Below, piece after piece: positions 8,280 to 63,280 of a DNA stretch of 64,000 nucleotides. The DNA lies in the NCBI GenBank assembly GCA_973895155.1, contig OZ316896.1, forward strand, positions 5,407,303 through 5,471,302, written 5' to 3'. The stretch is from Marsupella aquatica (taxonomy: Eukaryota > Plantae > Marchantiophyta). Position numbers and translations under genes: made by a program. Below the pieces are notes generated by a model. It did no database searches. It had not been told where the DNA came from and saw only the letters and a program-made list of their open reading frames with translations. How positions within the stretch are numbered: the stretch's first letter is position 1; the number at the start of each line of letters is the position of its first letter.

Positions 8280-9503
8280 TTAGCAACTGACGCGGTTCAT
8301 TCTTGCAAGAACCTGAGCAGATACAACTCGCCCTTGTGGAACGGCCAGCTCGCGAATGGATGGCGGGTTAGAATTGAAATCCACGATACGTAGAGAACTT
8401 CTGTCATGATCCTCTAGTGGCACTCCCGCAGCCGCTCCGACTACACCGCAGATTTTCCCCTTGCCTGAAGTTAGGCTGTAGAGGCCCTTCAATCTAGGAT
8501 CTACCAAAACCGTCGTCCATTTATCCGCTTGGGGATCATAAACGCTGAGCTTCCCGGCGATTTGGTCGATGACGTAGAATTTGTCATCGACAGCAACGCA
8601 GGATCCGACCCAGCCTACCTTCAAACCCTCAGGCATCCTAGACCACGTCCGTGTTGAAGAGCAGAATACTGCGCCAACCTTCATGAAGATGCCCCTTCCA
8701 CTCACCATGTACAATTTTCCATCCACGTTGACGGCTGGTATGGCTTCACCGCTAAACTTTGAAGACTCCAGAGTAAGTGGCAAGGCTTCCCACGAATCCG
8801 ACTCGAGATCGTACACTTCGGTGGATTTCGATAAGCTCATGGTCCACAACATACCACAGCCACTGGCAACATAAACCTTATCGCCGACGACGCCACAAAC
8901 GCACCATTTCCTTGGAATCTTGAATGCACAGCCCTTCTTCCACTGGCACTTGATCGGATCGAAAACCCACGGATGCTCGAGCGCAGGCTCGAGTGGTGCC
9001 CACTGATGCTGAGCCGTGTCTCTTCGAGCCAATCTCACTCCGGCCAGCATGACCAACTTCTTCCCAGTGCTCACGCACTGCACGTGATGCGTCAACCCGA
9101 TGCTTCCAGGACTGCTCAGCTGGAAATCTATTTCTTCGGGCATTGCTGGCAGAGCGTGCCATGTCGAAGTGAAGGGGTCAAACGCTTGCCAAGAATAAGT
9201 ACCATCCTTGCTCCGAACCAAAACGTAGAGCCAGTCGATAGCCTTGCGGCCAACTTCTCTCCGAGCCATGGCAAGCTCCTCCGATGTTTCCACCGCATTC
9301 TTCCAAAGTTTGCAAACCTCACGAAGTGGTCCCACATCAGAGACTCTCGCAAGGCATCGCAAGGTCAACTCGTCAGGCAAACCCGAGAGCAATGGCACCG
9401 AACTGAAACTACCCTCCGTCGCAGTGTCTGCTGTCACTGACGAGCGGCGAGCCTTGCAACCCGATCCACACAAACCACGACCTGCTGCTTCATCCATGCC
9501 CAC
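8280..9503 (-). CDS. KUF1: F-box/kelch-repeat protein, SKIP25/KUF1-like, single exon, 407 aa
   Basis: F-box LLSGLPDELTLRCLARV...VCKLW. Motifs VQCVS..KKLVMLAG, PALEHPWVFDP, PRKWCVCG...VYVASG, KFSGEAIPAV and MPEGLKVGWVG match the KUF1/SKIP25 family as I recall it. Confidence 0.85.
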   Translation of the reverse strand: MGMDEAAGRGLCGSGCKARRSSVTADTATEGSFSSVPLLSGLPDELTLRCLARVSDVGPLREVCKLWKNAVETSEELAMARREVGRKAIDWLYVLVRSKDGTYSWQAFDPFTSTWHALPAMPEEIDFQLSSPGSIGLTHHVQCVSTGKKLVMLAGVRLARRDTAQHQWAPLEPALEHPWVFDPIKCQWKKGCAFKIPRKWCVCGVVGDKVYVASGCGMLWTMSLSKSTEVYDLESDSWEALPLTLESSKFSGEAIPAVNVDGKLYMVSGRGIFMKVGAVFCSSTRTWSRMPEGLKVGWVGSCVAVDDKFYVIDQIAGKLSVYDPQADKWTTVLVDPRLKGLYSLTSGKGKICGVVGAAAGVPLEDHDRSSLRIVDFNSNPPSIRELAVPQGRVVSAQVLARMNRVSC

Positions 9504-9538
9504 GTCTACTCTTTCTAGAGATCAGACCACTTTGCTCC

Positions 9539-26434: not shown

Positions 26435-27978
26435 TGGGGGGTGGGGGGACCTTACTGAAAGCCCGAGCGCGGGTCAGGGTTGGACCAATCACTTGGGCGA
26501 GGGAAAGCCCTGAATTCTTATAGAAATAAAACCACCAGGCCAGTGGGCCAAAACAAGAGAACACAGAAAGCAAGAAGTTCAGGAAACCATCATCCATTGT
26601 GGACATTTAAGTAAAACAGTTGTTAGGCCTTACAGGAGAGCTCAATATCAAACCTTTTGTGTAGTCATCAAGGTCGCAGTTTAGCAAAATTGCAAGGATT
26701 TATCATATGGATTTCAAGATAGGGAGAAAGATGATTCCCTCCTTTTGGTGCACTGTGGAAGGCAGTGAAGGACTGAAAGTAATTGAAGAATGCATGGAAC
26801 AAGGGAGGTTGCATACCCATATCTGCCAATTGTTGTTGTCTCTCTTCATGAACACGACACCACAAGCGTTGTCTGGCATCCTCACTCCTCTTCCAAGCAG
26901 CTTCTCGCTTGTCCCATTCTTCATCTTCCTCTGCTTTGATCACTGCATCTCTTGCCAAATCGTTGGCCTTTTGCTTTGCCATCATATTGCTGAGATAGTT
27001 GGCAAAATCCCTAGCCTCGCGTCTGTGAGATGCTTTCAACTCCCTTTCAGCTTCCATTTCTGCTCCTTCTCTCTCCATCTGATAGGCAAGCCTTTCCTTG
27101 TCGTCTGCCTTTTCTTTGTTGATCCTGTCTTGTTGCATCCCTTTATTCGCTTCATTGTAATCCATCATGTATTTGCATCTTTGCCTTTCTTCTCGTCTTT
27201 GCTCCAACATCTCCTTACGCAAGGCCTCTTCTTCCTCATTCCACCTTTGGGTCATTTCTGCCATTTGGCGTTTCACCCGTTTCTTGTCCTCTTCTCTTAG
27301 CTTCTCCACCAATGCTCTTTGCTCATTCAACATTGTGATAGCTTCCTGTTTCTTTGTCTCCTTCATCTCCTGTTCTTTCAAATACCGTAGTTCCTTCTTT
27401 TGCTCTGCTGCTGCAATTTGCCTCTGGAACATCTTAGCTCTCTCCTCTTCTTCTTCTTTCAGATGTTCTAGTTGCTGCAGTTGGATCTTCCTCCCTTCAA
27501 CAGCTCTCCGAACTGCCATTTTTGATTCGTGCATGCGAACATCGTCGTTGCTCTCCTTCCAAGCTCTGAATAGCTGGTCTTGTGCGTATTTTTCCTTTTC
27601 CTCTTGTCTATTTGCTTTCAGAGCTCTTGCTCGCGCATCTAACCAAGCTCGTCTTTCAGGAAGTGTCATGGTGAGAGTTTTGAGTTCGTCCATCAGAAAG
27701 GCTTCCTCGCTGTCCAGCATGGCTTTAAGTTCCCGCCTTCTCCGATCCAAATTCCTTTCCTTGTTCTCATTCATTTCCTTGAACATCTCTTCCATATCTC
27801 GAAACTTTCGCTTTGGCTCCCCTGATTTGGCAAATTCACATGTTCGCATGACATGCTGATACTCCTTGACACCTTTAACGTTTTCAGCAAGGCGATCTTC
27901 ATAATTCCGCAATTTGAATATTCGATCTTCATTAGCAGGCAACCTCTTTGGATGGTAGTAGAGGTTTTTCCCAGCCAT
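25257..27978 (-). CDS. CFAP53: Cilia- and flagella-associated protein 53-like coiled-coil (TPH-type) protein, ~501 aa. Exons: 27978-26817, 26278-26166, 26082-26062, 25912-25816, 25369-25257
   Basis: Long E/K/R/Q coiled coil (RRRELKAMLDSEE, ARALKANRQEEKEKYAQDQLFRAWKESNDDVR). All four GT-AG introns are phase-consistent and the exons total 1506 nt. The C-terminus is ...PEPFYGRKTTQWYEP*. Confidence 0.8.
26396..26432. repeat. (TG)n microsatellite in intron 1 of the CFAP53-like gene
   Basis: About 18 TG units. Confidence 0.95.
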
Positions 27979-30035
27979 GGTTCCTTACCCTTCAGTTGTT
28001 GCAAGAATTCATCCTTTGAAGTAGGTTTCGAGCCAGAGCTTCTCAAGCGAACCAAACTCACTCATGCTTTGGAGTTGTGATTCCCAGGAGTGAAACTTGT
28101 TATCTACAAAGCGCAATTTGTTGGTCTTGTTCGGTAGGCATTCCACACTTGGCATTGATCATGAAATGCAATCTAAAATGATTGTTCTCGAAGTTCCCAT
28201 ACGACGCAACACCAGGGCCTTTTTAAATCCTCGCAAAGCCATTCTATCAGTCTCTTTGATTACTCCAGTCGAAGAATTGCCTCAAATTGCCCTTAGTCGA
28301 CATCCACTGGGATCAATTTAAGAAGACGGAAACTCAAAGATTTTGTTTGGAATAGTCAATCCCAGGTAATTCTTCACCACTCCAAACTATTTCTCTTGGC
28401 AGGTTGGAAATTGGTGTATCGTGGGTTATTATCGACATTCTGGGGCCAACTTCCGACTTAGGTCATCAGGAAGGCCAGCCGGTGCAGCACAAAATACTTC
28501 ATGGGGCTAGTGAAGATCCTTATGCCAATGTCCCTTGGGCTCCCTCGGAATATGCTTAGTTGGTTGGGTAAAGACAAGAAGAGTGGAATATTAAGAGTGG
28601 ATGGCACAAAAATTGGGATGCATTTTACACAGAACAACAGAAGAACCTGAACTTTTGGAAGCTTGATTCGAAATTTCAAACGAGAGATGGAAGTTATCAT
28701 TTCCCGTCCCTCATTTGCAGAGATTTTTTTTTATCCCGACATAAAATTATCCCGACATAAAATCCTCAATTTGCATGCCTCAAATTTTATCCCGACATGC
28801 ATTTTTGCCTTCATGAACGTTGTCCAAGCCCCTGTGAAGTGAAATCACCCTGTCTTCAACTGAATTTAATCCAAACGGACTGTACAAATATATCATTCAC
28901 AGGCTGAGCAAATCCCTGAGAGCTTGCGCCGGGCAGGAGAGTTGCTTCCCAGTGACAAGGTCACGTGGAAGACGTGTCATCAGTACCTCTTAGTTCATTC
29001 AATCCAACATCGACAGTCGTGCAACCAAGAATGCACAACGTATAAAATCCTCAACCTGACTTCTTCCATTAACTTCCCCCGACTGTCCTACCCACCAGAT
29101 ATAAACAATTAAACGACAGTGCCCATAACCTGTTGACAGCCGCCCAAGATCGTTTCGTACATTGACTTTTGCCAGTCATATGAGCGAAAGGGCTTACCAA
29201 TTAACCACCATTTCCATAACCACCGAACTGGTACTCTACAAGCTCCAGAGCCGAATAATACTGAGGTATATGCAACTGCAGAGGTCATCCAGATCCGCAT
29301 AATACTGAGGTATATGCAACTGTAGAGGTCATCGAAGAAAACTCGAAGGTCAAACTTGCCCAGGTGATGCGCACATATGTAGTCCAACTGGGTTTAATTG
29401 ATAGCGATGATGCGTCCAAATGTTTGAGGTTTAATAGTGAGATGCTTGCCAGTAAGATGCGAGAGTGTAATTCAAGTCGATATTTCACAGCTTGCTATGA
29501 TGCGCGACAGTAGACAATTGAAACTTCTCCGTTTGGTAAGTTAGGGTTCATCGAAAGCTTCAAGTTCACATGTACTGAATAAAGACAACATCCAAAGAAG
29601 GTATTCTTGTAAGCCAACAAGTACATGCGCGACAATGACAGGAATTTTAGACTTGAAACAAGGAATGATCCAATTACTTATGTTCCGCATACTATTCTTT
29701 GCTCCTCTGACTGTGTGCTACAGGAGAAGGGCTTCAAGGGTGGATTGTGCCTCGCAAGCGACCATGACTATGAAATCCTATAGGTCCTCAAGTGGGACAC
29801 TCTTTTTGCAAGGTGAGGGGTAAATGACCCCTTGTGAGTATCTGTTGGGCCTATCGTGTTAAAGAAAATTAATAGACTCACGATGAATAGAAGTCTACTT
29901 CATTGAAGAGAGAAATTGTTGCTAAAGAAACGACGTGGACCTGCAATTGCTCATTGCTCATCCGCCCACCCACTGCATTATTTGGAACGCCTGCACCATC
30001 CGTCCACTTCAATGTTTTTTGAAACTGTCAAGGAA

Positions 30036-47647: not shown

Positions 47648-48924
47648 CATACCTCAATTCAAATGACGTCTTGAAATTGATTGGCACACTAGAAGGAGAA
47701 AGATTCACCAGATAAGCTATCATATTTACAACGTACTTCAGCCCAAAATTCATCTGGTAAACCTAATTAGCTCAACATACTCCTCGATCTCTCTAATAGT
47801 GTTTGGTTGAGCCACTCAAAAATACTATTTTGTTGAGGAGTATAAACTATTGTGAGATAGCAAGTAATCCCTTACTCTACACAGTATGATTTAAATTCAC
47901 CTGAAGTGTACTTTTTGTCGTTATCTTATTATAGATATATCACCTTGCTTCTAGTTTGATTCTTAACTTGGACTTTCCACTCCTTAAAAGTGGGAAATAT
48001 TTCAGACTGAGCATGTAGAAATGAGACCCACACATACCTTGAGTAATTGTCAATGAATGTGACATAGTAAAAAAATTTAGAAAGTGAGGGAGTTGGGGCT
48101 AGACTCCACACATCACTATGTACATACTCAAGTATTGCTTTGGTATTGTGTGTTCCAACACCAAAGGTTCTCTTGTGTTGCTTCCCAAGCACAAAAATCT
48201 AACTTAGAAGATTCCAAATTAGGAAGAAGTTCTTTCCTGTGAAGTACCCCCAAACCTTTTTCACTCATGTACCTCAATCTGTAGTACCACAACTGAGCCA
48301 TCTCGTCTTGAGATCTAGTTGTATTGGCTTCTTCACATACAAATCGCGTTGCTCTCCAACAAATGGAGATTATTATGCCGTTTACCCTTAAGGACAACCT
48401 TTCCTCTTATTGACACCTAAAGTACATCATCCGCAGAACTCCACTGATAATCATTCGCATCTAGCATTCCAAGAGAAATCAAGTTCTTTTTTATGTTAGG
48501 AACGTGTCTGACATTTCTCACTGTTTGCACAACTCCATCAAACATCCAAATTTTCACAGATCCAATTCCAACAATTTGACACAGGTGATTATTCCCCATC
48601 AACATTGAACTGTTTGATATAGAGTAAAAACTGAAAAACTCTCGTATATAGGAAATATGATAAGTACAAGCACAATCCAAAATCCATTCATCATTACCTT
48701 CTTGTAAAAAAGTGCAAAGAGCAACATCCTCACTTCATAAGATTGGATCATTGAGCATGTCTACATCATCGTCAACAGTGGCAATATGTGCAGACAATGG
48801 ATTATTCACCTTGGCTCGACAATCTTTTTTCATGTGGCCTACCTTATTACATTTCCAACATATAATCGGTTTTTTTTCTTGAGATTTTTCTCGAGACCTA
48901 GATCTAGATCTAGATTTGTCCTTG
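47648..48924 (-). pseudogene. Copia zinc knuckle, protease, GAG-pre-integrase and integrase core segment
   Basis: CWKCNKVGHMKKDC; WILDCACTYH; VRHVPNIKKNLISLG; LEYVHSDVW; YYVTFIDNYSRYVWV. Confidence 0.9.
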
Positions 48925-49630
48925 GGGAATTTACAAACGATAGCAAACAGATAACAGTAACAGCAAACAGTTACTATTATCAGCTAAAAGAAACTATTAC
49001 GAATGAATAGTGTTTGGCTAGCAGTGAACAGTGATCATGAAAAAGGGGATAAAAGATGCATTTCAAACTACTGGTATAGAAATCAAGACGATCAAATTTG
49101 CGTGAAAGGAAATTGGACTAAACGGAATCATGTATTTTGCAACAAATAAAACCGTCTCACAATTGAGATAAACAAAATCCGAGACCAATATATGTCAAAA
49201 TGCGCAGGGGGAAAATAAAATTGTCATATATAATCGCAAAGTACAAAATGCGTTCGGCTCAGGTCCTAAAAACGCACTTATAAGTTAAAACCTGCAGGCC
49301 TAGAAATCCGATATACAGAAGCCATGGTCGACCCCGGCTGAGGATTGCCAATAAAACAAAAGCAGCGCTCGGCGCTAGCCAACAACTGCAGGAAAAACTA
49401 TGGAATTCCTGAAGATAACAATCGGGAAAAACCCTAACAACTAAGCCGAGGGCGACTCCGTTCCGAAACATCAAAAGAGCTTAAGCACTGCTCGGTGCTA
49501 GCTTTAAGTGATCACCTAACTGAACAATGCGATGTCGTTCTTCATGAAAAACTGGAGGAACAACAAATAAGTGATTGCATCTAGCTTTCAGAGTTGCAAT
49601 CATCCTCCACTCCTGCCGCTTCTCTCCTCT

Positions 49631-49657
49631 CCTAAACCCTAAACCCTAAACCCTAAA
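49631..49657 (+). repeat. Short plant-telomere/telobox tract (CCCTAAA)x~4
   Basis: cctaaaccctaaaccctaaaccctaaa. Confidence 0.8.
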
Positions 49658-50094
49658 TCCAAGACCACGCAATCGAATGTATCTCTCAGAAGGACCCCGA
49701 CGCACTGCCTCGTAAAACCTTCATTGGGAATATTATTGTCCTTAAAGTCAACTTGCCCAAACATTTCTTGAACTCTCCTATCGATTGGCAGTACACCATC
49801 AACAGGAACAGCCTGATGAGACTAGAACCTGCTTGCGAATGGGAGCGGAGGAGAATCGATGATCCATGGGATGTTCTTTTCTCCAGGACTAATAGCCTCA
49901 TCATACGGTAGAGCGTGATGGTTCCAAAAAGTAGAGGTTTCAGTCTCTTTAGTCTCCATCCGTGACTCAAAAGAACTGAAATGGCTCTCTTCCGGACGCA
50001 CACGAGAAGGGAGGAACGCTGCCTCCCAATCCATGAGCTCATCGTTTCTCTCCATGTTGAATAGAGCCCGATCAAGTGTCAACTTCCCATCTAA

Positions 50095-50480
50095 CAAAAC
50101 GCAGAAACTGTTCGCAAAAGGTCCGCAAACGGTTGTGGGTTCGAAAGATGTCGTTCGCAAAAAATATCTCCCACAAAACATCCAAACTGTATCTTCCGCA
50201 AAAGGTCCGCAAACGGTCGTGGGCCCAAAAACTGTCGATCGCGAGATTTGAAGTGCGCAAAAAGTGTCGTCGGAGAAAATGGTCGTCGGTCCCAAAACAG
50301 TCGTCGATCCCAATACTTGTCGTCCAAAAATCTCCATGTCTTGACACTTGGTCGGGCTCAACAAGATCTCTCCATGTTGATGTTGTCCGAAAGATCTCCA
50401 AAAATGTTGTCCGAGAGAGATGCCATCAACAAGAGATCCGAAAATGTTGTCCTAGAGATCCAAAAATGTCGTCCGAATAC
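50095..50480. repeat. Degenerate repeat array inside the MULE
   Basis: 'cgcaaaaggtccgcaaacggt.gtggg' occurs twice and 'aaaatgt(t/c)gtcc..agat' several times. Confidence 0.7.
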
Positions 50481-50804
50481 AGTCCATGGGGGTTTCCTTG
50501 GCAAGCTAACGGACCCAAATAAAATGGCCGTATCCAAAATGTATAATATACTATGTCTTTCCTACTATTTGTCTCATTATGATGACCGTTGGTAGGACAC
50601 GACAAAGACCAAACGACCATGTTACACAAATAAGAGCTGGAAATATTCGCTTTATGAATCATCATTTGGCGAGCGCCTTGCGCTTGTAAAAAACACAAGT
50701 AATGAGACATTAATTTATAAGGACCCAATGAGAGGATTTGAATACAAGTTGGTACTAGCGCCAGGCGCTAGTAAAAAATTTCTCCCTAAATTCCTCAATA
50801 CGTG

Positions 50805-53800
50805 TCACAATTCTGCAGATTCAGATTCGGAACCAGAATCTGTACTCTCGGATTTGTCCGTGGACACAGCCTCATCATCTACGTACTAGCTGCGGGAGAA
50901 GTCATCAACATAAGGATGTTTAATGAACTTCCTGTCAACACCCCTTCGTAACCAAAGACCTTTGTTTCCCAGCAAAGCGTCCTTGTACTCTCGGCTTTCC
51001 TTGCGGCTTTCTCTGCATAGGAGGGAAGAACAAAAGGTTTTTCTGGTGTTTCTATGTTGTGTCTAGCAACCCTCCTTCGCAGTTTGAAACGTCTCCTCGC
51101 ATTCCACTCTGACCTGATGAAACGAAATCCAGCAAGTTAGGTGCCTTTCTCCAAAACAACACATAAATGTTATAAATTGATGGGAATGGAGAAAGAAGCT
51201 TACGAGTTTATGAACATTACTTGGAAGAGTCATCGCTATCGATTTCATCTGGAGATCCACGAGGTTCTTCCTTTTCCTCCTCCGAGTCCCCTGTACCTTG
51301 TGTCCTCTCCATCTCCACCTTGACTGGACTCATCATCAGAATCAAAATTGAGTACCGACTGAAGCTTATCTTGCTTCTTTCTGTTAGCAGTAGGAACAGG
51401 TGGAGGTAAAACCGCAATCTCTTTGGGAGACAACAAATCCATGAAAACCTTCAAAGCGGTTTCAATAAATTCTTTTTTATGTTCTATCCCAAGCACAAAC
51501 CTCCCGGAGAAGTCTCCAGCAATGAAGGAGCTTCCAGCCCCAGCGGTCCAATCCATAAAAATATCACAAGGTTGGGTGACAAGCTCAATGACAGATTGCA
51601 TAAACCCGACAGACAGGCGAGCATTTCCAGCAAACTCCATTTGCGAGAATGGATTGGATTTGAGAGAAGGGAGTCCGATCAAATTGGTGACCGAGGGGTC
51701 CTCACTGATGGAGAGTGGACGGAATTTAGGGTCTTTGGGAATTTTACATTTCCCATTAATTCGACCAAATATGTCCAGCCTGGGGGTAAACATCTGCGGA
51801 AAGCAATCCCAAGTGTTAGCTGGCAACTCCAGGTTACACGAGTTTTAACTCAAAACGCGATATAGTTAAGAGTAGATAATTACCTGATGGTCTATCTTTG
51901 CCGCGTACATCGGGACAGACATTACAACATTATGCGTGCATATGCACTGAAATTTTCTCGACTCCTGACAGGCAGCAATGACTTGAGACATGGGATCATA
52001 CTCCCCATTGTGTAGAATTGCAAGAAACCCATCATCTGATAGAAATGGATCCATGGATTTGAAAAAAGATCTAGCCATGGAGTGATCTGGAGTGTTCCAT
52101 TTAGGAACCTTCTTATCTATGATCGTTGGTTTGAACCCGGTCGGTAGGTAAATGAAACCCGCATCCACTCCAAAAAATCTTTCTTTTCCGCCCGGCACAA
52201 CACCCTTCTCTTTATATCCCGACTTAACGAGATCCTTCCCCACTTCTCCACATTACTAACCCATTCAGGTTTTTCCCCCTTGTTGAAAGTCGAGTCAAAA
52301 AATTCGGATAGGCTTGTCTCAACCATGGCATGACGAGACACTCTAGTTTTGAAGTTTACAACTTCATGTTGGACACCAAATGCTGCAACACTCTCCCTTG
52401 AAGAAGGTCCATGTACATTCGATAGCTCTCTTTCATTTCTTCCTGGTACTTGTGGCGTCGACCGGAACTATTACCTTCCCCTTGTCGACAAGAGTAATGG
52501 GGTCCGATCGAGCTCCGATGTTTGCTTCAGAAACTTCAGGTGTAGCATCCACTTTAGTATCTCCTATTCCCGCAGTATTAGACTTCCTCCCTCCTAAATT
52601 ACCAATAGGTCCAAGTTAGAATAAGTAAATCCCGAGTATTCAAACAAGCTAGCGCCAAGTGCTAACCAAATGCAAATCACTTAGGTTTCAACAAAGGCCT
52701 AAGAATCTAGAAAGAAATGTGAATTCGCATGACAGTTCTAGCCAGCGCCAGGCGCTGGCCAAATTATGGAACACTATACTCACTTTTCCTCCTAGATTTT
52801 GTTGACTCGCTTGGTGTTGCTAACTCTGCTTTTGCTTTTGCTTGAGGTTTGCGACTTCGGTCCACATGAACAATAGTTGTTTCACAGATACTTTGCAAGT
52901 CTATGGCAGACTTGTCTACATTGTCTAGCAGGCCTTGCTTCATGTCAAACACAATTTTTGCTGATATGTGGGACTTTGAAAGCTTATGGAATGCATCTTT
53001 CTCCCTTTGATCAAAAAGAGAATCCCATCTATCTATATCTAGATACCAGGGGCAGTGAGTTCTCTCCCATTCTGTCATAGGTCTCGGAGGAAATATGCCC
53101 TCCGCTGGGTACATGGAGTACAAATCAGCTATGGCGTCATCCTCACTTATTGTAATCCACTTCATGAAAGCTGCAGGATATGCCCTGAAGTAATCAGGTT
53201 TGGTTACCTCCATGTGCATGTAGAACCTGTAAAGATACCTTTTAGCCCGCTTCTGGTTTTTCTGGGTGTAGTCTTCTTTGTCTGGATACTTTGAAGGCCA
53301 CATAGTGTGAAAGAACTTACTCTTCATAGAATCACCATATCTCTTGAATTCATTTGTAACAAACTGAACGAGATCATCAAACGAACCACAATTCCACTCT
53401 TCTAATCTAGTCGCGGGCATCGTCTGCTCTACTTCACGCAGACATGAATGTAACATGCCGACAACAATTCCCTCTACACTATTCCAAGTGATCCAAGTAT
53501 GACACCATTGTTTGACTGGGTCGTTGTTAACACTTGTTGGGTGGAAAAATTATCTCCGTAGCTCAGGATTGCAATATGCCACAAGTAGGATGCTTTGCAA
53601 CTTTGGGTCTAGGGCAAAAACAATAGTGAACAATCGGGCGCGGTCCATTGTACATACGACGGTGTCAGGCTTCTTCTCTCTCTTGTTTCTCTCTGACAGC
53701 ATACATTTATGCACATGTACTGAGAAAATCTTCAAATTCAGGACTTAACAAGGGCATGATTTTTGAAGACTTCACTGCCCAGTCTTTGGTTGCATCCTTC

Positions 53801-55048
53801 ATCATGGCCGCATGCCATTTGGAAATCTCGTCCACTGACCAGGGACTCCCTTGAGCCTCGGCTGCCTCCATGTCAAGCTTGAATTGGTGCGAATAGGACC
53901 TTAATTATCTTATTCTCACATAGAATGTAAACAAGAGCTACTTGTGGCATCTTCTTTGTATACCATGACCCCTTCCAAGTCTTCAGCCGAATGCTCTCAA
54001 ACTTCTTGAAATTGGCCGGGTCAATCAGTTTACTGTAATACTCAAGGTCATGCGCCAGAATTTGTTTGATTCTATCTGCATCAAGGATCCAGGATGGCTC
54101 AACAACGGCTTGGCCAAGCCTACACAAAGAGACGCAGCGAGTTAGAGTCAAAGTACAATTTATCTATAACCAGCGTCGAGCGCTCTTAAATAGAACACTC
54201 GCAAGATTCAAAGAAGGAACTGGAAAAGAACGAGAACTTACTGATTCACGGTGTGCATAGCTACCTCAATTTCAATAAGAGATCCCTTAAATATTGTGCA
54301 GAGCACTCGAGGATGGTATTTTGGATTGTTTGGGTTCTCCTCGGTAACAAGCGTCCATGAGTACAGCCTGTGATTTCCATCAAAGACAGAACATCTTATC
54401 TTTCAACACGAGAAAATCTAGGTCGGCCTTGCATTCAGCCTCAAACTTCTTGTTCTCCAATTGCCAAATTGGATCCCATGAATCACAAATCTCCTGGGTA
54501 CAGGTCAGAACAATTCCATTCTCATCCGTTGGCTGCACATAGAAATGCATTCCTATGGATGAATTGTAACCCATACTGCGAAACGAGTCTTTCAGCTTCT
54601 CGATGGAAGAGCTGTCTTTGTGCAAAGTACGAACCACCTCCATGTGAACCAATTGGCATAAAGGGATTCAAGGCGGCTCCTTGTCAAATCCACGAGAATC
54701 CTTTCCAAAACACATGACGTGTTTTGAGATGAGATCAGTCTTCGCGAGCGCGCAGTTTGAAACATCCTGGATCGCAATCGTGTCGAGGTTCTCCATCTTT
54801 CTACGCAGAGATTTAGGAACCAAAACAACGCTAATAGAAGTAGGAGGCAACAATTTTGTGGAACAAGTTACACGACGTGTATAAACTAAACTAGTAAACA
54901 AAGACTGCAAGGATTCAGAATAAGCTCGCTCCTGGTCAGGAAGTGCACTATACCCTCTAGATGAAGAGGGGAATACCTCCATCATCTTCCTTCCAGAAGC
55001 GTACAAACTATCGTACAATGAAATTATGCACCTCTTATCAACTCTCAA
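50805..55048 (-). pseudogene. MULE cargo gene: ParB/Srx-like N-terminal domain, helical region, beta-class N4C/N6A DNA-methyltransferase-like domain, acidic tail; intron-containing and frameshifted
   Basis: IEKLKDSFRSMGY...VFDGNHRLYSW (54381-54367). Motif-IV-like GVDAGFIYLPTG...W...FLSDDGFLAI precedes motif X/I/II-like RLSVGFMQSVIELVTQPCDIFMDWTAGAGSSFIAGDFSGRFVLGIE. GT-AG introns at 54120-54241, 52594-52783 and 51794-51883 are phase-consistent. Confidence 0.7.
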
Positions 55049-55790
55049 CGTGTAATATATTCTAGAAGGAGGGTGGAGTTTAGCGGAACTCTTCGATTAA
55101 AGCGAGAAGCTGGTAAGTTTGGTGGATTCCAATGTATGTTTGCGGAGAACTTAATTAGCTAAATCAAGCGGTAGAAAAAGCGTAACACACACGGAACTCA
55201 TAAGTTACCGTTAAATGCTACCGTTATGACCGTTTTCCTCCCTCACTTGGAATACTAGCGCCGGGCGCTATTATAAACACCTTCCCCTTGAGTAGATAAT
55301 TGGGATGATTGTCATGGCAGAGCCCGGCGCTAGTAAAAACAACAGCTATAAAATAGGTCTGCAATGGTGGCTCTAGTACATAAATTTTGTCAAAACAACC
55401 CCCATATTTAAGGAAATGTCTATTGTTTTAATGGTTTTTGGGAAACATTACTTGCATCCTATACTAGCGCCCGACACTAGTGAAAACTAGAATTTTTCAT
55501 CCATAATTCTGAAAGAATTCACATTTTCATTGACCATTTAAATCCAATTACCTCATAGTATTGATGTATATTCGGTGAGTTTTTTCTATACTAGCGCCAG
55601 GCGCTAGTATGGAATATCGAGATTTGGGGCACATTATGTTTAAGGTATTTTAGTTAGCGCCAGGCGCTACTCAAATTGTTCCGACTATGCAATATCTTAG
55701 GGTCGGTTAAAGATTTTTGTGGTGTCTTTTTTGGCAGTATGTATGCGTCTGACATCTGGACTTATTGGGGAAAAACAACAAAATTCATTT
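55049..55790. promoter_or_regulatory. Divergent intergenic region with five TAGCGCCnGGCGCTA-type palindromes
   Basis: Copies at 55253-55273, 55319-55331, 55462-55482, 55588-55610 (perfect 23-bp) and 55655-55669 lie between the two head-to-head genes. Confidence 0.6.
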
Positions 55791-57539
55791 ATGGCGCCAA
55801 CGGATCCTATGTCGACTATGTTTTATGTCTTATACAAACGGATCTGTTAACGTGAAGTTCCTAGGTTCGACAAATATAAGCTCCATATTCCCATAGACTT
55901 TTCTTCCTCGAAACATTACAGCCCTCGATATTTGTTTTCGATTGCAATGTCTCGGTCCAACGTTCTATCCCGATTTGGGACTGGGGATATTGTGACCATC
56001 CCCGTCCTTGTGCAAGACACGTACAAGCAGGTCCAGGATAGATACCTTTGCGGGAGATTTGATTTGAAGATGAATGATATTGAGGCCATTGATCGAGAGC
56101 TTGAAACCAGTGATGACATCGAAGATGTTGCAACATTCAATGTGGATGATGGTGAACAGTTTTGGCATCTATATGCAAGGATTTTGTACTCACTTTGAGT
56201 AAGACAACATGAAGGACTATCCAGTGTCTCCCAAGTTCCATTTGATGTTGTCGAGATTTCTTTTAGTGAAGATGGAGATCACACTCCAAGTCCTATGTTG
56301 AAGATGAAAGTCCCGCAACATGCTGTCATTAAAGGTGAGACTCCAGGAAGCTCCAACCAGTTGGAGGTCGTGTATTGGTGGAGTGCAATGGATACGTTAC
56401 TCAAATCCACTGGTCATAGCGAGTTATCAAGGTTCATATCAGCGGGTTATTTCAGACATGAGCAAGTCTCCTGTCTGCCAACTAAGTATAATGGGAATGT
56501 CGTGTTTGAATTGCCACCGATTGACAAGATGCTCTCTAAAGGCTCTAGGCTTAGGGACATGGACCGTGCCAAAGATTGCTACATTTGGACACGCATATTT
56601 CCAACTACCATGAACGTTCAGCCAAAAAAACTTTGGCAATTCGGTAAGGTTACCTGTACGGGATTTATTGAATGTTAGAACAAGTCCTGCGAGTACTTCC
56701 AAAGGAAGAAGAAGGCAAATGCTAAGGCATGGCAGGGTACTCCAAAGCTTAGTGGGCAATATGTTGTCGGATCTTTTATCGAAGAGGGCGGTCTTGTGTG
56801 TCATTATTGTGATCAGATTCCTTTTTGTGTCAAGTACTGCCCTGCCCGTTTGTTCTATATGTACCCGCAAGTATTACTTGATGCGGAAACATGTAGTCAT
56901 ATGTCCCGCCTGGCGATTCATATAGGTGAGCATAACCATCCAGGTAGAAAAACCTTCTCTAGGAGTGCGGAGAAGATGGCTGAGGATTTAATTTTAAAAA
57001 ATCATGAAGCCAATCCTCTGGCAAAACCAGCTGGGATCTTGAATTATGCTACAAGGTCCATAGTGAAAGCTCTCTGCGAACATGTTGACGACATGGTCGA
57101 TATTGAAGAAACTGAAATATGGAAGTCTCTGATGGTACTTTCCACTCCCCAGAAGTTTGCATCTCTTTGTCGGAGCGTTAGGATAGACCAAAAGGGTCGG
57201 GGTGAACTAGATTTTCTCTTGCAAATGCAGAAGAGGATTAACCTGTCATTTCTCCAGAGGTATTTTCTCCCGGGTCAGGGATGTCAAGACAACAGGCCTC
57301 ACATCTTTAAAATGATCACAAAGGGTCACGGTTCCGGTGTGGATCTTTTGAGACAGATGCAACCGGGTGGAAGACTCGAAGGAGCCTGGGTCAGTTTCGA
57401 TGTGATGCAGCGTATCACAACCGATTGGTTTACTTTTAGCGTGCATGTCTACGACCATAACTTCCGTGCACTTTGTACAATTTTCACATGCAAGTTGAAA
57501 GGTGAAGACACTGAGTCTTTCGAAAAGGCTTGGAGAGTT

Positions 57540-59905
57540 TGTGACGCCGATGACATGGTCCTTATTCTATAATCTGAGTAAGTAGGTTGCTGTATGCAAG
57601 GAGTAGCTATTGATATTGCATAACAATTAGCAAGATGGCAAGAACAAGGGCAATCATGGCGTTGAGTAGGGAAATAAAAGCTATGTCGCGGGTGGTCGGC
57701 GACCATATCTCTTTCAATACGTCACCAAATCCAGATCTGTAAAGAGCATTGGAAAGATCTGGTCAAGGCGAGTAAAATTGATATAAAACACTTGAGAAAC
57801 AGAGGTGTATTAAGAAAGATACGACCTGATTAGTGTGACAGGTTAACTTGTGGCCAGAATGAGCGGATTCGGTTTCGGGTTAACCTAAGCTGAGGCTACG
57901 GCTTAGCTTATGAGAGCTCGGATTCAGCTTAGCTCAGGTCAACACGGCTTCAGCTTAGCTCAGGTCAGCATGGCTTCAGCTTAGGCTTAACCCGGGTTCG
58001 GGTTATATTGAGCCCGGGTTAGACTGAACTTCGATTAACCTAAGCTCGGGTTTGGGCTCAGCTTAGCCTAGGTTAGCGGATAGCGGGTAGCGGCCTAACC
58101 CGAGACCATGGGTTAGCTCTACTCGGGTTAGATAGGATAGCTAGGTTAGCCAAACTCGGGTTAGCTATGTAACTCGGGTTAGCGCAGCAATGAGTACCCT
58201 CTCTCGGTTGTGGGGGCATAACTCTCTGTGTATTTGACCAAATTGGCTATAATTGACCTCGTTGGAAAGAGAGCTCAAGCCGCTTCCAACGCTGCTATCC
58301 ACGCTGAAAATGGTTGAATAGAGAAATCGGGAGAGGAGGCGCAAGCTCGCAAAAACCATGGAGGAGGGCCAAATCCGAAGTACATAGCCAATTCGAGATA
58401 GAAATAAAGTTGCAAGTTAGGGTTCAGTAGTTAGAGATAGTGGCGGCTCTGTTAGGGTTGGGATGGGGCTCCAGCAACGTAGTATCCACCGATTTGGGCT
58501 CAGTATGAGAGTATATAGAGCAGCCCCCGGTAGAGGCAAGGGGGGGGAACTTCAGTTGTGTGATCTCACTTGGATTGAGCAGCAGGGAGGAGCTCTGTGC
58601 AAGGAAGGCTGGGCTTGGAAGCTGTGTGTTGGGGAGAGCTTGGTTGTGCTATTACTCAGGGAGTAATCAGCCACGCTTCACAGCAACAGTTGGCCAGGTT
58701 TGCAAGCTGGATTGTGGCTCTTTCTAGTAGGCAACACAACTGGGTTCTTTCCCCCAATACAAAGCCTTGGTGATAGGTGACGTGTTGGTGATTGTAAACT
58801 GTGGGGAGGATTTCAATGTGATTTGCGTTGAGCACATTAGGGAGGCTGAGATACTGATTGAGGGGCAGCAGGAGGAGCATTTACAGTTTAGTCTGGCAAG
58901 GCTACGTGATCCATGGGGAGTCCCGGCCTTTGTTTGGTAGAGAGCACTAAGGGATTTATGGCCAGAGCTGAGCTTGCAGGGCAAGCATGAGGTCGGGCCT
59001 CATTGTAGTCTGGGGTAGATCGCCGTTAGGCCTGGTGCCAACTTTGAAGTCAAGTCAACTGTGCATGCGTAACTTGACATTCTGAAGTGGAGGTGTGAGA
59101 TCTGTATGTGCCCCCAAGAATGAAGTGCAGTGAAGGAGGTTGAGTTCAGGATTGAGTTTGCAAGGCAAGTACGGGATTGGTTCGAGTCCAATCTGCCATT
59201 GCAATCTGGAGTGAGTCGGGCTGAGGGTCAGGATTGAGCTTGCAGGGCAAGCACGTCGCAATCTGGAGGAGACAGCCTTCGGGCCTATTGTTCGGATCAA
59301 GTGTTCTCAATGAACTATTGTGCACATCTTTGAATCTAACTGAGTTTTCCTCTCAGGCCTCATTTCTCTCATGGATGTGTATGTGTGAGAGGCAATCTGA
59401 GTGTATGATGGGACTAGCAGGGCCACTGAGAGGTGTACCGGGTGCATTGAAGTGGGTTGGGTGAGGGCTGTCACAGCTCTGATTGCTGAGAGTGGAATGC
59501 CAGAGTGGTGGGGCAATGGTTTAGAAGTCCCTAAGCCGGGAATCAGTTAGGAGTCACTGGTTTATGGGTACATTCCGGCAACGAAATAGAAATATATCTA
59601 TGACAGTAAGCATACGTATAGACATATGCACACCATAGCACTAGGCCCTGTGTGTATGGGCCCGACATGAAGACCCCTTCTCACCAGAACTATCATGAGC
59701 ACAGGATGTGATTCCCAACCTTGGTTCTTAGGGATTGAGCTTGGGTGATGTGTGACGGAGTCTTGCTATGATAGTCTGGTGTTAAGGGCATAAACTGGTG
59801 TTTACCGGCCTTACAACATCCCTTCGTGATCCTCAGGTACAAGGAGATGGTTTTGGCACCCATAGTGACGTTTTTGGTGTTAAGACCCATGTCAATCGCG
59901 TGACA
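57540..59905. mobile_element. Solo-LTR-like insertion D (2366 bp) inside the transposase
   Basis: Imperfect terminal inversion TGTGACGCCGATGACATGG ... CCATGTCAATCGCGTGACA; 5-bp TSD gagtt at 57535-57539 and 59906-59910. Excision restores AWRV-MIEV in frame. Confidence 0.9.
57865..58182. repeat. Low-complexity ttagct/cgggtt array inside insertion D
   Basis: Repeated cgggtt, ttagct and ttaacc motifs. Confidence 0.75.
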
Positions 59906-62790
59906 GAGTTATGATTGAGGTTTGCAAGGAGAATGGATTACAAGAGGTTGTCATCCAAGGGTTTATGGCGGATAATGCACAAGCTGGATGGAATGTTGTG
60001 CGTAATGTTTTTTTTGGTGGACACCCAAATGCGGAGAGGGAGCGCTCTGATCCATTTCACTTTTATCAATCTTTCCATCGACATTCCAAGGAAGGAGTAC
60101 TCAAAGAATGTCAATCAAAACATCGGAGACTTTGGGAGAAACTAAGAAATGCTCCAACGTTTGTGGTAGCATATCGCGTGTCCCGAGAGATTGTGGTTTG
60201 GTAGCAATCAGGAAACTGTGTCCCTGGAAAGCTCATGATGCTACAAAGCTGGATATCCTGGTGGGTTGTTTGATGGCGCCAGTGGGGCAATTTTATTCGA
60301 GTGGTATGACATCCATCTCCTCTCTTGTCTTTCATTTTCATCAACTTTATATTAGCGCCAGGTGCTGGTATGATTTGCTCGTATCTTACACGTAAAAACC
60401 AGGAATACAATACATTGAGTCCAACATGTCCATAAAGTTCCAGAATCATAATTGCAATTGTATTTCACGTATGTTATACATACTTGTCGGTGCCAGCGCC
60501 AAGCGCTGGTAATACAATGCTAGTACTGATTATTGCATTCGGACTATGGCAAAGCAAAAGCGCAGAAGAAGGTGCCTTGATTCCCAACTGTACAGGGTCA
60601 GAATCAAGGCATGTGTCGATGAAAGCGTGGGCTACAAAGAAACAAGTTGGTCTTTTTTAAGCATGCAAAGTTGACCGAAATTGAGCCCTGTCTCAAGTTG
60701 CGGGATACAATGCATATCGGAAGGGTTGAACAGAGGAAAGGGGCCAACTATATGGGAATTGGCATTCCGTTCCGCCAATCAAGCAGGTTTGCCAAGGTTA
60801 TTTGAAGATGCAACCAACATACTTTGATTTGGAAAGAAGTACTCCCCTTAACGGAGATATCGTGACCAAGTCAATGAAGAGAAAGGGACATGCAACTAGG
60901 ACTGTCTCTCCACAAGACTCCCATCGGCATGACACCGTTCTCATAACCACACCAAATACTCGTGGTTTGAAAAGGAAAACCTAAACAGAACTGACTTTGC
61001 CTCCATTCCCTCTAATTCTAATGATCCTGTGACAAGAGTGGTGAATCTCTCTGGCATGGACACATCAGATGGTGATACTGATTCACTGGACAATACCCCT
61101 CAAACAACCCGTACAACAAGATCCACAAAACCTCCACTCAGCCCCAGCCTCACTTCAGAATCCACTTCCACGCACGATTGTGCTAGAGAAGGATGTCCCT
61201 CTTGGGCAGTGGCAGTTGCGACGGATGTCCAAGTATGGAGCAGGTCCCCAGTGTAATGGGACACTCAATGGGAGTTCTGATCACGATGAGTGTCGACATC
61301 GTATCAAGAAGGTTGGCTTCCATTCGTCTGACGGTGTTGTTGGAATTGTTGTGAAGGGCCATCATCTCTTCAAGGGCGAACCCATCTCCGAAATGATTTG
61401 GTTCTGCCCAAACCAAACCTGTTATAAGAGTTGTTTGCGTCGTGGTGTTCATCAGCTTCCTCCTTTTCCTGAAATTTTGCCTGTTCTGAAGGGTACGAGC
61501 GTATCTCCTTCTGAAATCACGTTCCTCGAAGAGCAAGGACTTGTCTTAGCCCAAACAACAGGATCGAGTCAATCTGCGCCATCTTTGTTTGAGCTCAGGA
61601 TAAATGTGAACGTGTTCCCAGAAACAATAAGGTTTTTGGAGCCAAATGTCCGGCTGGGTAGTCGGAATGGGAGGAACTCAAGACCTCGATCTAATCTCAC
61701 TCACTGTGGGTCACACTAAGCGAATGGAGTCTGCACGACAAGAAGAGATGAGTTTGGATGGGGAATGGAATGTTTCGACTGGAAATGCTTTTGGAAAGGA
61801 ATTTCAAATTTGAACCCATGAGAACCTTCGATCCCCAAGCACGTACTTTGTGCAATTTTGTATCTTCCCTGCTTGCTCTTGTGAGGACTTCTTCCAACGA
61901 CATTTGCGTGGCAAGTCGTACATGCCTTGTAAACATCTATACTGGGTGTACATAAATGTTTTCAAACTTGAGGTTGAGGAGTCGACTCTTTGTAGCCAAC
62001 CAATTTTGACTGTGGGCGAAGTCAGGCTTGTCTTGGAGAGGCAGAACTTGAATGGCTTATAATAGAGGCCGAAACTTCCGTATAGGTCGTTCAATATAAT
62101 GGATAGTCACTATTTTGTCTTTACCCAACGGATATTTTACTTGTTTTATTCAAAATTGTTTGGTTAGCGCGGGGCGCTGCTTCCAGAAATCTTACTTTTC
62201 TTGCTTTATTATGTACGCGTGTAGTGTAAGCATTACAACATGTTTTATTTAAAATGTGTAAGTTGATATCATTATGTTTTATCTTTAAAGCCGCGTTTAT
62301 TCAATTATTCTGAAAAATATAGTTATCGCTAGGAGGTGTTTTGTCATTTGTTTGTCACGATACACGGTCCATTTAAGTGAACTCATTTTGATTGAGTTTA
62401 TTTGGACACTACTCTTCACTTGTTCTATGGTGGGTCCCACCCTAAGGTTCACTTTTTAGCTTGGACGAATAGTGATATTTGAATGAATGTTTCATTGAGT
62501 ATAGTCCCAATACCGTGTTCAGTTATCTTCTACAACAAAATGTTGTTGCAAGGGAGGATTGCTAGTACTCTTCATCCATCGGATGGCACAAAATAATTGT
62601 TTGTTTTAAACCTAATTCACTAAAGCAAAATTCTGTGATTAGCGTAGTTTTTCATTCGAACCAAAGGGCTATGGTTGATGCAAAACTGGTAACAGGGAAT
62701 CGCTTACTAGTAACAGGTAAAATTTGACTGTTAACAGCAAAATATCTCCTGGTAACAGGTTTTCTGTTTTCTGTCATGGCTATCATACCC

Positions 62791-63280
62791 TTTGTCCTTG
62801 TCTCTATTCTTATTCCATGATTTGCCAGGGGTCATAGTCAAAGCGGTTCCTGAGGAACTAGATGGCATAGAGGACGAGACCATTTTTTGTTGTATGTCAT
62901 TAGTCAGCAAAACGCTTATAACCTCATTATAGGTGATAGTTGACTTATCACGATGAAGTAACACTCTTGATAGAGACTAATAGGATGCAGTCAAAGAACT
63001 CAAAAGATAAAGTGTTTTTCTCTCATCAGTTAATTTCTCTCCAAGATTCAATAAAGTTGCAACGAGATCATTGAATGGATCAATGTGATCTTGAATCTTG
63101 GTGATTTTATCCTTCATCTTGAAACTCATTAGTTTCAAGGATGTATAGAGCCAATTAAAAAGCTACATGTGATGGTATGTTTGTTGCAACGTCGTGAACA
63201 AAGAGGTGCATGATGAATGGTCATCAAGTTGCTTGATGATATGAGGCTGGAGATACTTAGAGTTAATGATACTCATACCT
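62791..63280 (-). pseudogene. Copia gag (UBN2-type) remnant
   Basis: LMSFKMKD..IQDHIDPFNDLVATLLNLGEKLTDE...LLSSL..SY.SL..VLLHRDKSTITYNEVISVLL. Confidence 0.85.

Follow-up and report, generated by a model that had tools for sequence, protein, structure and literature searches.

The Mutator-like element and its palindromes

The window analysed here, 64,000 nucleotides (nt) of the liverwort Marsupella aquatica (contig OZ316896.1, positions 5,407,303 to 5,471,302), contains a decayed DNA transposon at 48924..62790, which measures 13,867 bp including a nested insertion and has no clear long terminal inverted repeat. It is bounded by a 9-bp target duplication, TTTGTCCTT, at 48915-48923 and 62791-62799, interrupts a Copia-type gag frame, and is called a Mutator-like element (MULE) on the basis of the length of this duplication and of transposase motifs read by eye. 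Two broken genes lie in it in divergent orientation: a cargo gene on the reverse strand (50808..54997; inferred exons at 54997-54241, 54121-52784, 52594-51884, 51793-51221 and 51114-50808, with several stops and frameshifts) and a transposase gene on the forward strand (55949..62060). The non-coding DNA of the element also carries 14 copies of a palindrome, AGCGCCNGGCGCT (AGCGCC-N-GGCGCT, a 13-bp core), which is a conserved feature of one Mutator-like family and within the window is private to the element.

When up to two mismatches were allowed, the 64,000 nt contained 14 matches to AGCGCCNGGCGCT, all between 49364 and 62178, compared with a mean of 0.42 and a maximum of 3 in 100 dinucleotide shuffles of the window. 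A reading made earlier from the DNA letters alone, hereafter called the sequence-only reading, had reported about 14 such palindromes confined to the MULE; the places that it listed were correct, and the four long palindromes that it quoted are exact in sequence and position. The copy at 55257 joins these four as a fifth with a perfect core (5 of 14). No palindrome was found outside the element, in the nested long terminal repeat (LTR) insertion or in the exons, again as had been reported, at two mismatches and with exon limits that are inferred. A third mismatch added six matches (three outside the element, one in a transposase exon and two in the LTR insertion), which were treated as background, no shuffle test having been run at that level. 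The word also emerged from an unbiased scan for perfect gapped palindromes (half-length 6, gap 0-7), in which the element was compared with four control regions, the nested LTR insertion and three flanking blocks. In the element AGCGCC-N-GGCGCT headed the ranking, 11 dispersed copies being present at one mismatch, whereas the top word of each control region reached just 2 to 4 copies.

The 28 pooled half-sites give the consensus (T/A)-R-Y-Y-AGCGCC, and the palindrome as a whole RYYAGCGCCNGGCGCTRRY. Within the core, agreement is lowest at the innermost C (22/28), and the central base is free, all four letters occurring among the 14 cores. The distance from one site to the next ranges from 62 to 4,698 bp, and the flanks are unlike; these are single sites, not tandem repeats.

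Position of the sites in the element

Although non-coding DNA makes up only 37.5 % of the element without the LTR insertion, all 14 sites lie in it (P about 1e-6, with inferred exon limits, of which those of cargo intron 1 are firm and those of the transposase intron less so), where the sequence-only reading had called them almost all non-coding. The largest group, palindromes 7-11 (starts at 55257, 55319, 55466, 55593 and 55656; together 55257..55668), lies between the divergent cargo and transposase genes and is kept in related copies. Three are found in cargo introns: palindromes 4 (52651..52663, two mismatches) and 5 (52744..52756, perfect, 9-bp arms) in intron 2, and palindrome 6 (54172..54184, two mismatches) in intron 1, the position of which is common to relatives. 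Palindromes 12 and 13 (starts at 60354 and 60495; 60354..60507) belong to the inferred transposase intron, about 60303-60540 with an uncertain acceptor; a joint from 60369 to 60545 was seen in this region in public runs X2 and X4. Two sites are 3' of the cargo gene, palindrome 2 (50672..50684, one mismatch) and palindrome 3 (50757..50769, perfect, 10-bp arms), the latter about 40 bp beyond the inferred cargo stop. The remaining two, each with one mismatch, stand one inside each end of the element, palindrome 1 (49364..49376) 440 bp from the left end and palindrome 14 (62166..62178) 612 bp from the right end.

Retention and decay of the sites

Related copies were represented by contigs from four public sequencing runs (two studies, two organism labels) placed on 55230-55700. 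Of the best-supported 40 among 69 variant places, the five 21-bp sites contained just two, the other 38 lying elsewhere (P about 6e-5); for the same 40 places, depletion in the cores only had P = 0.006. Both variants within sites restore the consensus in the four runs, 55321 A>C at 95-100 % of depth and 55476 A>G at 72-96 %. All four runs cover all 30 bins of the element, at depths of hundreds to thousands in organisms A and B, and the family is therefore multi-copy, depth giving no copy number as such.

The copy in the window no longer works, and C-to-T change is eroding its sites: nine of its 12 core mismatches are C>T or G>A, a bias that we infer to reflect the decay that methylated DNA undergoes in a defunct copy. 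The cores contain 22 of the 30 CpG bases of 55230-55700. The observed/expected ratio of CpG is 0.9 in the non-coding DNA of the element, compared with 0.6 in exons, 0.53 in the LTR insertion and 0.54 in the DNA outside, but within the element no gradient of CpG with distance from the sites was found, so the raised non-coding value is weak evidence.

The cargo protein family

The cargo protein appears to consist of a ParB-like N-terminal domain, a helical middle part and a beta-class amino-methyltransferase fold, and, judged by sequence similarity, it belongs to a family of proteins of about 1,200 amino acids (aa) from liverworts and ferns. A 54-aa piece containing DGNHR found five relatives with 58-83 % identity, and a profile of these five found 378 cluster representatives at E<=0.001. 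Names were looked up for 20 relatives among 150 of these 378, and the 12 for which a species was given were from Riccia sorocarpa and Adiantum. The cargo exons of the window are matched in the same order along Riccia proteins of 1,191 and 1,207 aa. Cargo intron 1 is firm, since the sequences of five relatives stop or depart at one common residue, and the junctions in a related locus, L002, are identical. The methyltransferase exon and the middle exon found no homologue when used as queries among the longer proteins, an atlas search with the middle exon gave nothing informative, no cargo relative was found in viral contigs, and a tblastn search with P0003 against phages and plasmids gave nothing useful. 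UniRef gives three Riccia relatives, full-length and partial (P0158, P0156 and P0159), the label 'Trimethylguanosine synthase', apparently a wrong name for the methyltransferase-fold domain. A 15-bp form of the motif was also sought in viral contigs; 80 of the 85 matches were examined, and the one record with two copies had three sites at one mismatch compared with two for the control, and no ParB_N, so it was dismissed as chance.

The alignment of 62 N-terminal domains shows a V-R motif (56/60), G-N-H-R (its R in 55/62), a terminal N (58/61) and a nearly invariant L..F...GY. V-R, L..F...GY, G-N-H-R and the final N follow the order of the motifs of the cytidine triphosphate (CTP) pocket of ParB, with an insert of about 45 residues; in KorB the pocket motifs include R117 in GARRYR and N146 (PMC11790492, accessible part). 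Atlas features scored 0.93 for DUF6551 and 0.90 for a cluster bearing ParB_N, and weak matches were obtained to a ParB-like PHROG (E 0.05-0.27, three of six proteins) and to DGQHR (E 0.05-0.06, two of six). The ParB assignment, for which the statistics are weak, thus depends on a conserved motif pattern together with weak matches and without a significant one. Two AlphaFold models had low confidence (predicted local distance difference test 35.5 and 41.5), and a fold search gave no match at E<=0.001. No ParA-like match was found among the element frames scanned, nor was a KorA partner seen; the cargo is therefore not part of a partition system and is at most KorB-like.

The C-terminal domain has the S-adenosylmethionine (SAM)-binding motif I, with matches in PHROG, NCBIfam and the PDB at E 1.6e-4 to 2.7e-4, while the Pfam match to N6_N4_Mtase (E=0.0014) fell below the cut-off. 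At the position of catalytic motif IV, (D/N/S)-P-P-(Y/F/W), the copy in the window deviates, reading YLPTG as placed by eye and by alignment to relatives. Four Riccia proteins have DLPTG (twice), DMPSG and DMPTG there and Adiantum proteins DVPFG and DFPIG, whereas phage and plasmid enzymes, aligned by eye with pairwise scores that were not significant, have DLPYG or DPPY. The catalytic Asp is thus kept in the relatives, and from the YLPTG, DLPTG, DMPSG and DMPTG readings the aromatic residue is missing in this branch of the cargo family. Because the motif lacks this residue, the domain probably does not act as an ordinary writer of N4-methylcytosine (4mC) or N6-methyladenine (6mA) in this branch; its role may instead be to bind SAM or DNA, or to catalyse a changed reaction.

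Palindromes in a related locus

A scan of metagenomes reduced 290 candidates to two loci, L001 and L002. The cargo of L002 has 36-61 % identity to that of the window over three segments. Its intron 1 (818 bp) contains 19 AGC...GCT palindromes, compared with one in 1,114 bp of exon and two in the LTR insertion of the window; 13 of them are of a 12-bp type (AGCCC-NN-GGGCT) and four of a 13-bp type (AGCTYC-N-GRAGCT). No copy of the window motif with fewer than two mismatches was found in L002. A different palindrome inside a diverged cargo gene fits a site that changes along with its reader, as far as one pair of sequences can suggest it. Positions 420-1000 of L002 form an intronic tandem array with a period of about 20 bp, built from AGC...GCT palindromes. 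In L001 a half-site-like word, TAGCGCCGGCG on the reverse strand at 121-137, precedes the cargo start by about 450 bp, much as the site at 55257 does in the window; it may be there by chance.

Other features of the element and the window

The left (48924..49073) and right (62641..62790) terminal regions contain (G)TAACAG repeats, candidate transposase sites: these terminal 150 bp hold all four copies of GTAACAG and seven of the 11 copies of TAACAG in the element. The ends are inverted only weakly, and the repeats are mostly in direct orientation. The transposase gene, split by the nested insertion and an intron, has what we take, from motifs read by eye, to be a GCM-like Cys/His stretch, a DDE-type core with its D..D residues and a SWIM-like finger; Pfam returned just SWIM at E=0.83 and no GCM or MULE match. 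The nested LTR-type insertion (57534..59904; 2,371 bp) has TG...CA ends and a 5-bp GAGTT duplication, and the joint of the empty site, 57533 to 59905, is present in three of the four public runs (X2, X4 and X5). The insertion was about ten times deeper than its host element in these runs and has 26-nt repeats of its own at 57894-57984.

In the left arm, 49639-49911 comprises three CCCTAAA telomere-type repeats followed on the forward strand by a protein-like frame of 84 aa with no Pfam match, which may be a small third gene that points towards the cargo gene. Further on, 50064-50480 consists of CpG-rich degenerate direct repeats (a 46-nt pair and a 28-nt family), the length of which differs among related copies, and a 19-nt inverted pair is found at 50064 and 50341. 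Outside the element, two apparent host genes lie on the reverse strand: a 413-aa frame at 8280-9521, presumably F-box/kelch-like, and a 438-aa coiled-coil frame at 26668-27984 with a TPH domain match (E=5e-4), which we assume to encode a ciliary protein. This TPH gene, together with the occurrence of cargo relatives in liverworts and ferns, indicates a non-seed land plant.

Interpretation of the palindrome array

A dyad with a free centre, dispersed in promoter, introns and spacers and absent from the ends, is the trace that would be expected of a dimeric reader private to the element. We consider it probable, at roughly 0.6, that a dimer of the cargo protein encoded by the element binds the palindromes as sites specific to the family, and that it would act on its own element in the manner of VANC or KorB. 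The ParB-like part of the dimer would dock on two (T/C)AGCGCC half-sites around the free central base; by docking in the divergent promoter, the introns and the 3' spacers, the protein from an active copy could mark every member of the family and regulate its expression. Going by VANC, such control would most likely be protection from silencing, and spreading from the sites as a CTP-gated clamp, as in ParB and KorB, would be possible. The fuller version of this scheme is tentative and considerably less probable: a land-plant MULE cargo that loads at private parS-like palindromes, closes with CTP, slides and carries its methyltransferase-fold domain along the DNA of the family to block or overwrite silencing, site and reader changing together. 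The sequence-only reading had proposed that the sites are targets of the element's own ParB-methyltransferase protein. Private, non-coding and retained sites, with the cargo as the most plausible binder, support the core of that proposal, whereas its arguments from the arms of the palindromes and from CCWGG, taken up below, do not stand.

Several results weigh against binding by the cargo. Conserved words anchor the contigs that were placed on the promoter, and depth is highest at the sites, where further motif copies may accumulate and so inflate the apparent conservation; moreover, the four runs stem from just two studies. The canonical second arginine of GxxRxR is absent from the cargo family, a DndB match was obtained in just two of the 62 members (E 0.066), and no PDB sequence match was obtained with profiles of 5, 62 or 15 sequences, nor any significant match in Pfam. 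Comparison of profiles with three phage ParB-family proteins was not significant either (best P=0.0045, probability 8 %, after post hoc trimming). A helix-turn-helix (HTH) is unconfirmed: the PHROG 'HTH DNA binding protein' matched 53707-53901 at E=0.17, with no match for the L002 counterpart. The array in L002 is a single case, tandem instead of dispersed, with a pattern drawn post hoc from the same sequence, and it may be an unrelated insertion. As to the co-variation of motif and cargo that had been suggested as a check, L002 has another AGC...GCT array in the same intron, and L001 has none in the 576 bp upstream of its cargo start, a stretch too short for L001 to refute the idea.

A further point against the cargo comes from the main rival, which we regard as unlikely, namely that the palindromes are internal sites of the GCM-like domain of the transposase, used for self-activation or for assembly of the ends. 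The AtMu1c transposase alone binds its cognate motifs, hypomethylates and activates its family (10.64898/2026.08.24.746577), WRKY-GCM1 domains are DNA-binding domains of MULE transposases (PMC1702500), both as described in the accessible parts of these sources, and the two outermost palindromes form an inverted pair over 23 nt with 87 % complementarity. However, the peaks reported for AtMu1c are at terminal inverted repeats, whereas here the palindromes keep at least 440 bp away from either end, the ends carry (G)TAACAG as a repeat of their own, and the sites cluster in the promoter (5/14) and in introns (5/14). That the sites recruit a transcription or chromatin factor of the host, by which the element would stay expressed independently of the cargo, seems still less probable. 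Non-coding location and a cluster in the promoter would suit any regulatory motif, and the raised CpG ratio of the non-coding DNA agrees with this, but the other 50 kb of the window, host genes included, have no copy, and a strict dyad of 13-19 bp that occurs 14 times in one element, with another dyad in a relative, is better accounted for by a private reader.

The palindrome is very unlikely to be the methylation target of an active 4mC/6mA enzyme encoded by the cargo, with a CCWGG-like specificity and chemical marking of the element. The SAM-binding motif is retained, as is the catalytic Asp in relatives, one of which, from Adiantum, reads DVPFG, and bacterial-type 4mC writers occur in a liverwort (10.1101/2021.02.12.428880, accessible part). 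Nevertheless, the aromatic residue is replaced in the copy in the window and in all four Riccia proteins showing the motif, and CCWGG fits only five of the 14 cores, the central base of which may be any letter, and occurs 19 more times elsewhere in the element. The link to CCWGG and 4mC drawn by the sequence-only reading was not borne out on these grounds. That the palindromes work through secondary structure (hairpins, cruciforms) in RNA or single-stranded DNA, or arose neutrally by local duplication, has least in its favour and is scarcely credible. Perfect arms of 9-11 bp in some copies would suit it, yet none of the 14 cores has a compensatory change, and at distances 7-10 the arms are symmetric at 28 of 56 positions, where half-sites paired at random would give 24.3 (P=0.16), so that symmetric co-variation, earlier taken as a sign of selection, does not go beyond the common half-site consensus. 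The spacing of the sites, with their unlike flanks, and their retention in related copies also speak against this reading.

Comparison with known systems

The systems compared here are taken from the accessible parts of the papers cited. The sequence-only reading implied more novelty than there is, as similar proposals are already in print for red-algal and brown-algal transposons. In Bostrychia moritziana a Plavaka (EnSpm) element carries PAG3, a ParB-like accessory gene beside tandem inverted repeats; the authors propose that PAG3 binds and modifies its own transposon, compare it with VANDAL and mention homologous accessory genes of Chondrus Mutator elements (10.1101/2025.02.11.637652). PAG3 resembles the present cargo, as far as descriptions allow, in being a transposon accessory gene with a ParB-like N-terminus, in the inverted repeats on the element and in the proposed self-binding. 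It differs in its red-algal host, as opposed to a land plant, in having tandem arrays by the gene, where there are 14 dispersed single sites here, and in a 2-oxoglutarate (2OG) oxygenase partner in place of the amino-methyltransferase fold. The table of curated elements in the supplements of that preprint may list closer cases. The accessory protein of Sola1-1_Ec32 from Ectocarpus (1,104 aa, ParB-like with an N4C/N6A methyltransferase) has likewise been proposed to bind and modify its own element (PMC12477816). Again by description, it matches the cargo in size (about 1,100-1,200 aa), in combining ParB-like and methyltransferase parts and in lying on the strand opposite the transposase; it differs in being from a Sola element of a brown alga, and the catalytic motif is non-canonical here. 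The main text of that paper does not contain 'palindrom', and no site is named there. ParB-linked methyltransferases have also been described in algae (PMC4738411).

VANC motifs sit in non-coding parts of their elements, namely introns and the intergenic and terminal regions, and vary from one family to another (PMC5735166, PMC10398659). VANDAL elements share with the present one the Mutator type, an accessory gene and short family-specific motifs in non-coding parts, but the VANC motifs are 8-9 bp, non-palindromic and spread by tandem repeats, unlike the single sites here, the architecture of the cargo is another, and anti-silencing, established for VANC, is for this cargo an inferred function. 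KorB, which belongs to the ParB family and is encoded by a mobile element, plasmid RK2, has a palindromic site, OB, near to and far from promoters, and the OB core, TTTAGCGGCTAAA, likewise has outer AGC...GCT arms, a likeness that may be chance (PMC11790492). KorB is bacterial and its CTP binding, sliding and repression are established, whereas the cargo has no significant sequence match to it. Several palindromic sites on the same element, as looked for in a ParB/parS pair, are present here.

'ParB' does not occur in the accessible text of the paper on the Marchantia 4mC writer (10.1101/2021.02.12.428880), nor in PMC12973397 on active plant transposons, and in the literature searched, which left most subscription papers outside its coverage, no land-plant case of such a proposal was found.

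Significance

The palindrome array is genuine, bears the mark of selection and lends itself well to tests; its class has already been proposed for algae. For the algal ParB-like accessory genes self-binding has been guessed, and the accessible text reports no tested site. Here a sharp, conserved candidate site, a second palindrome family and full-length Riccia relatives allow binding, dependence on CTP and anti-silencing to be put directly to the test in a liverwort. If the cargo does read the palindromes, plants would have another anti-silencing system besides VANC, and a sequence-specific tool would be at hand that perhaps spreads from one docking site. Should the clamp version also be true, it would place a CTP-gated sliding clamp in a eukaryotic nucleus, with an anti-silencing function unrelated in architecture to VANC.

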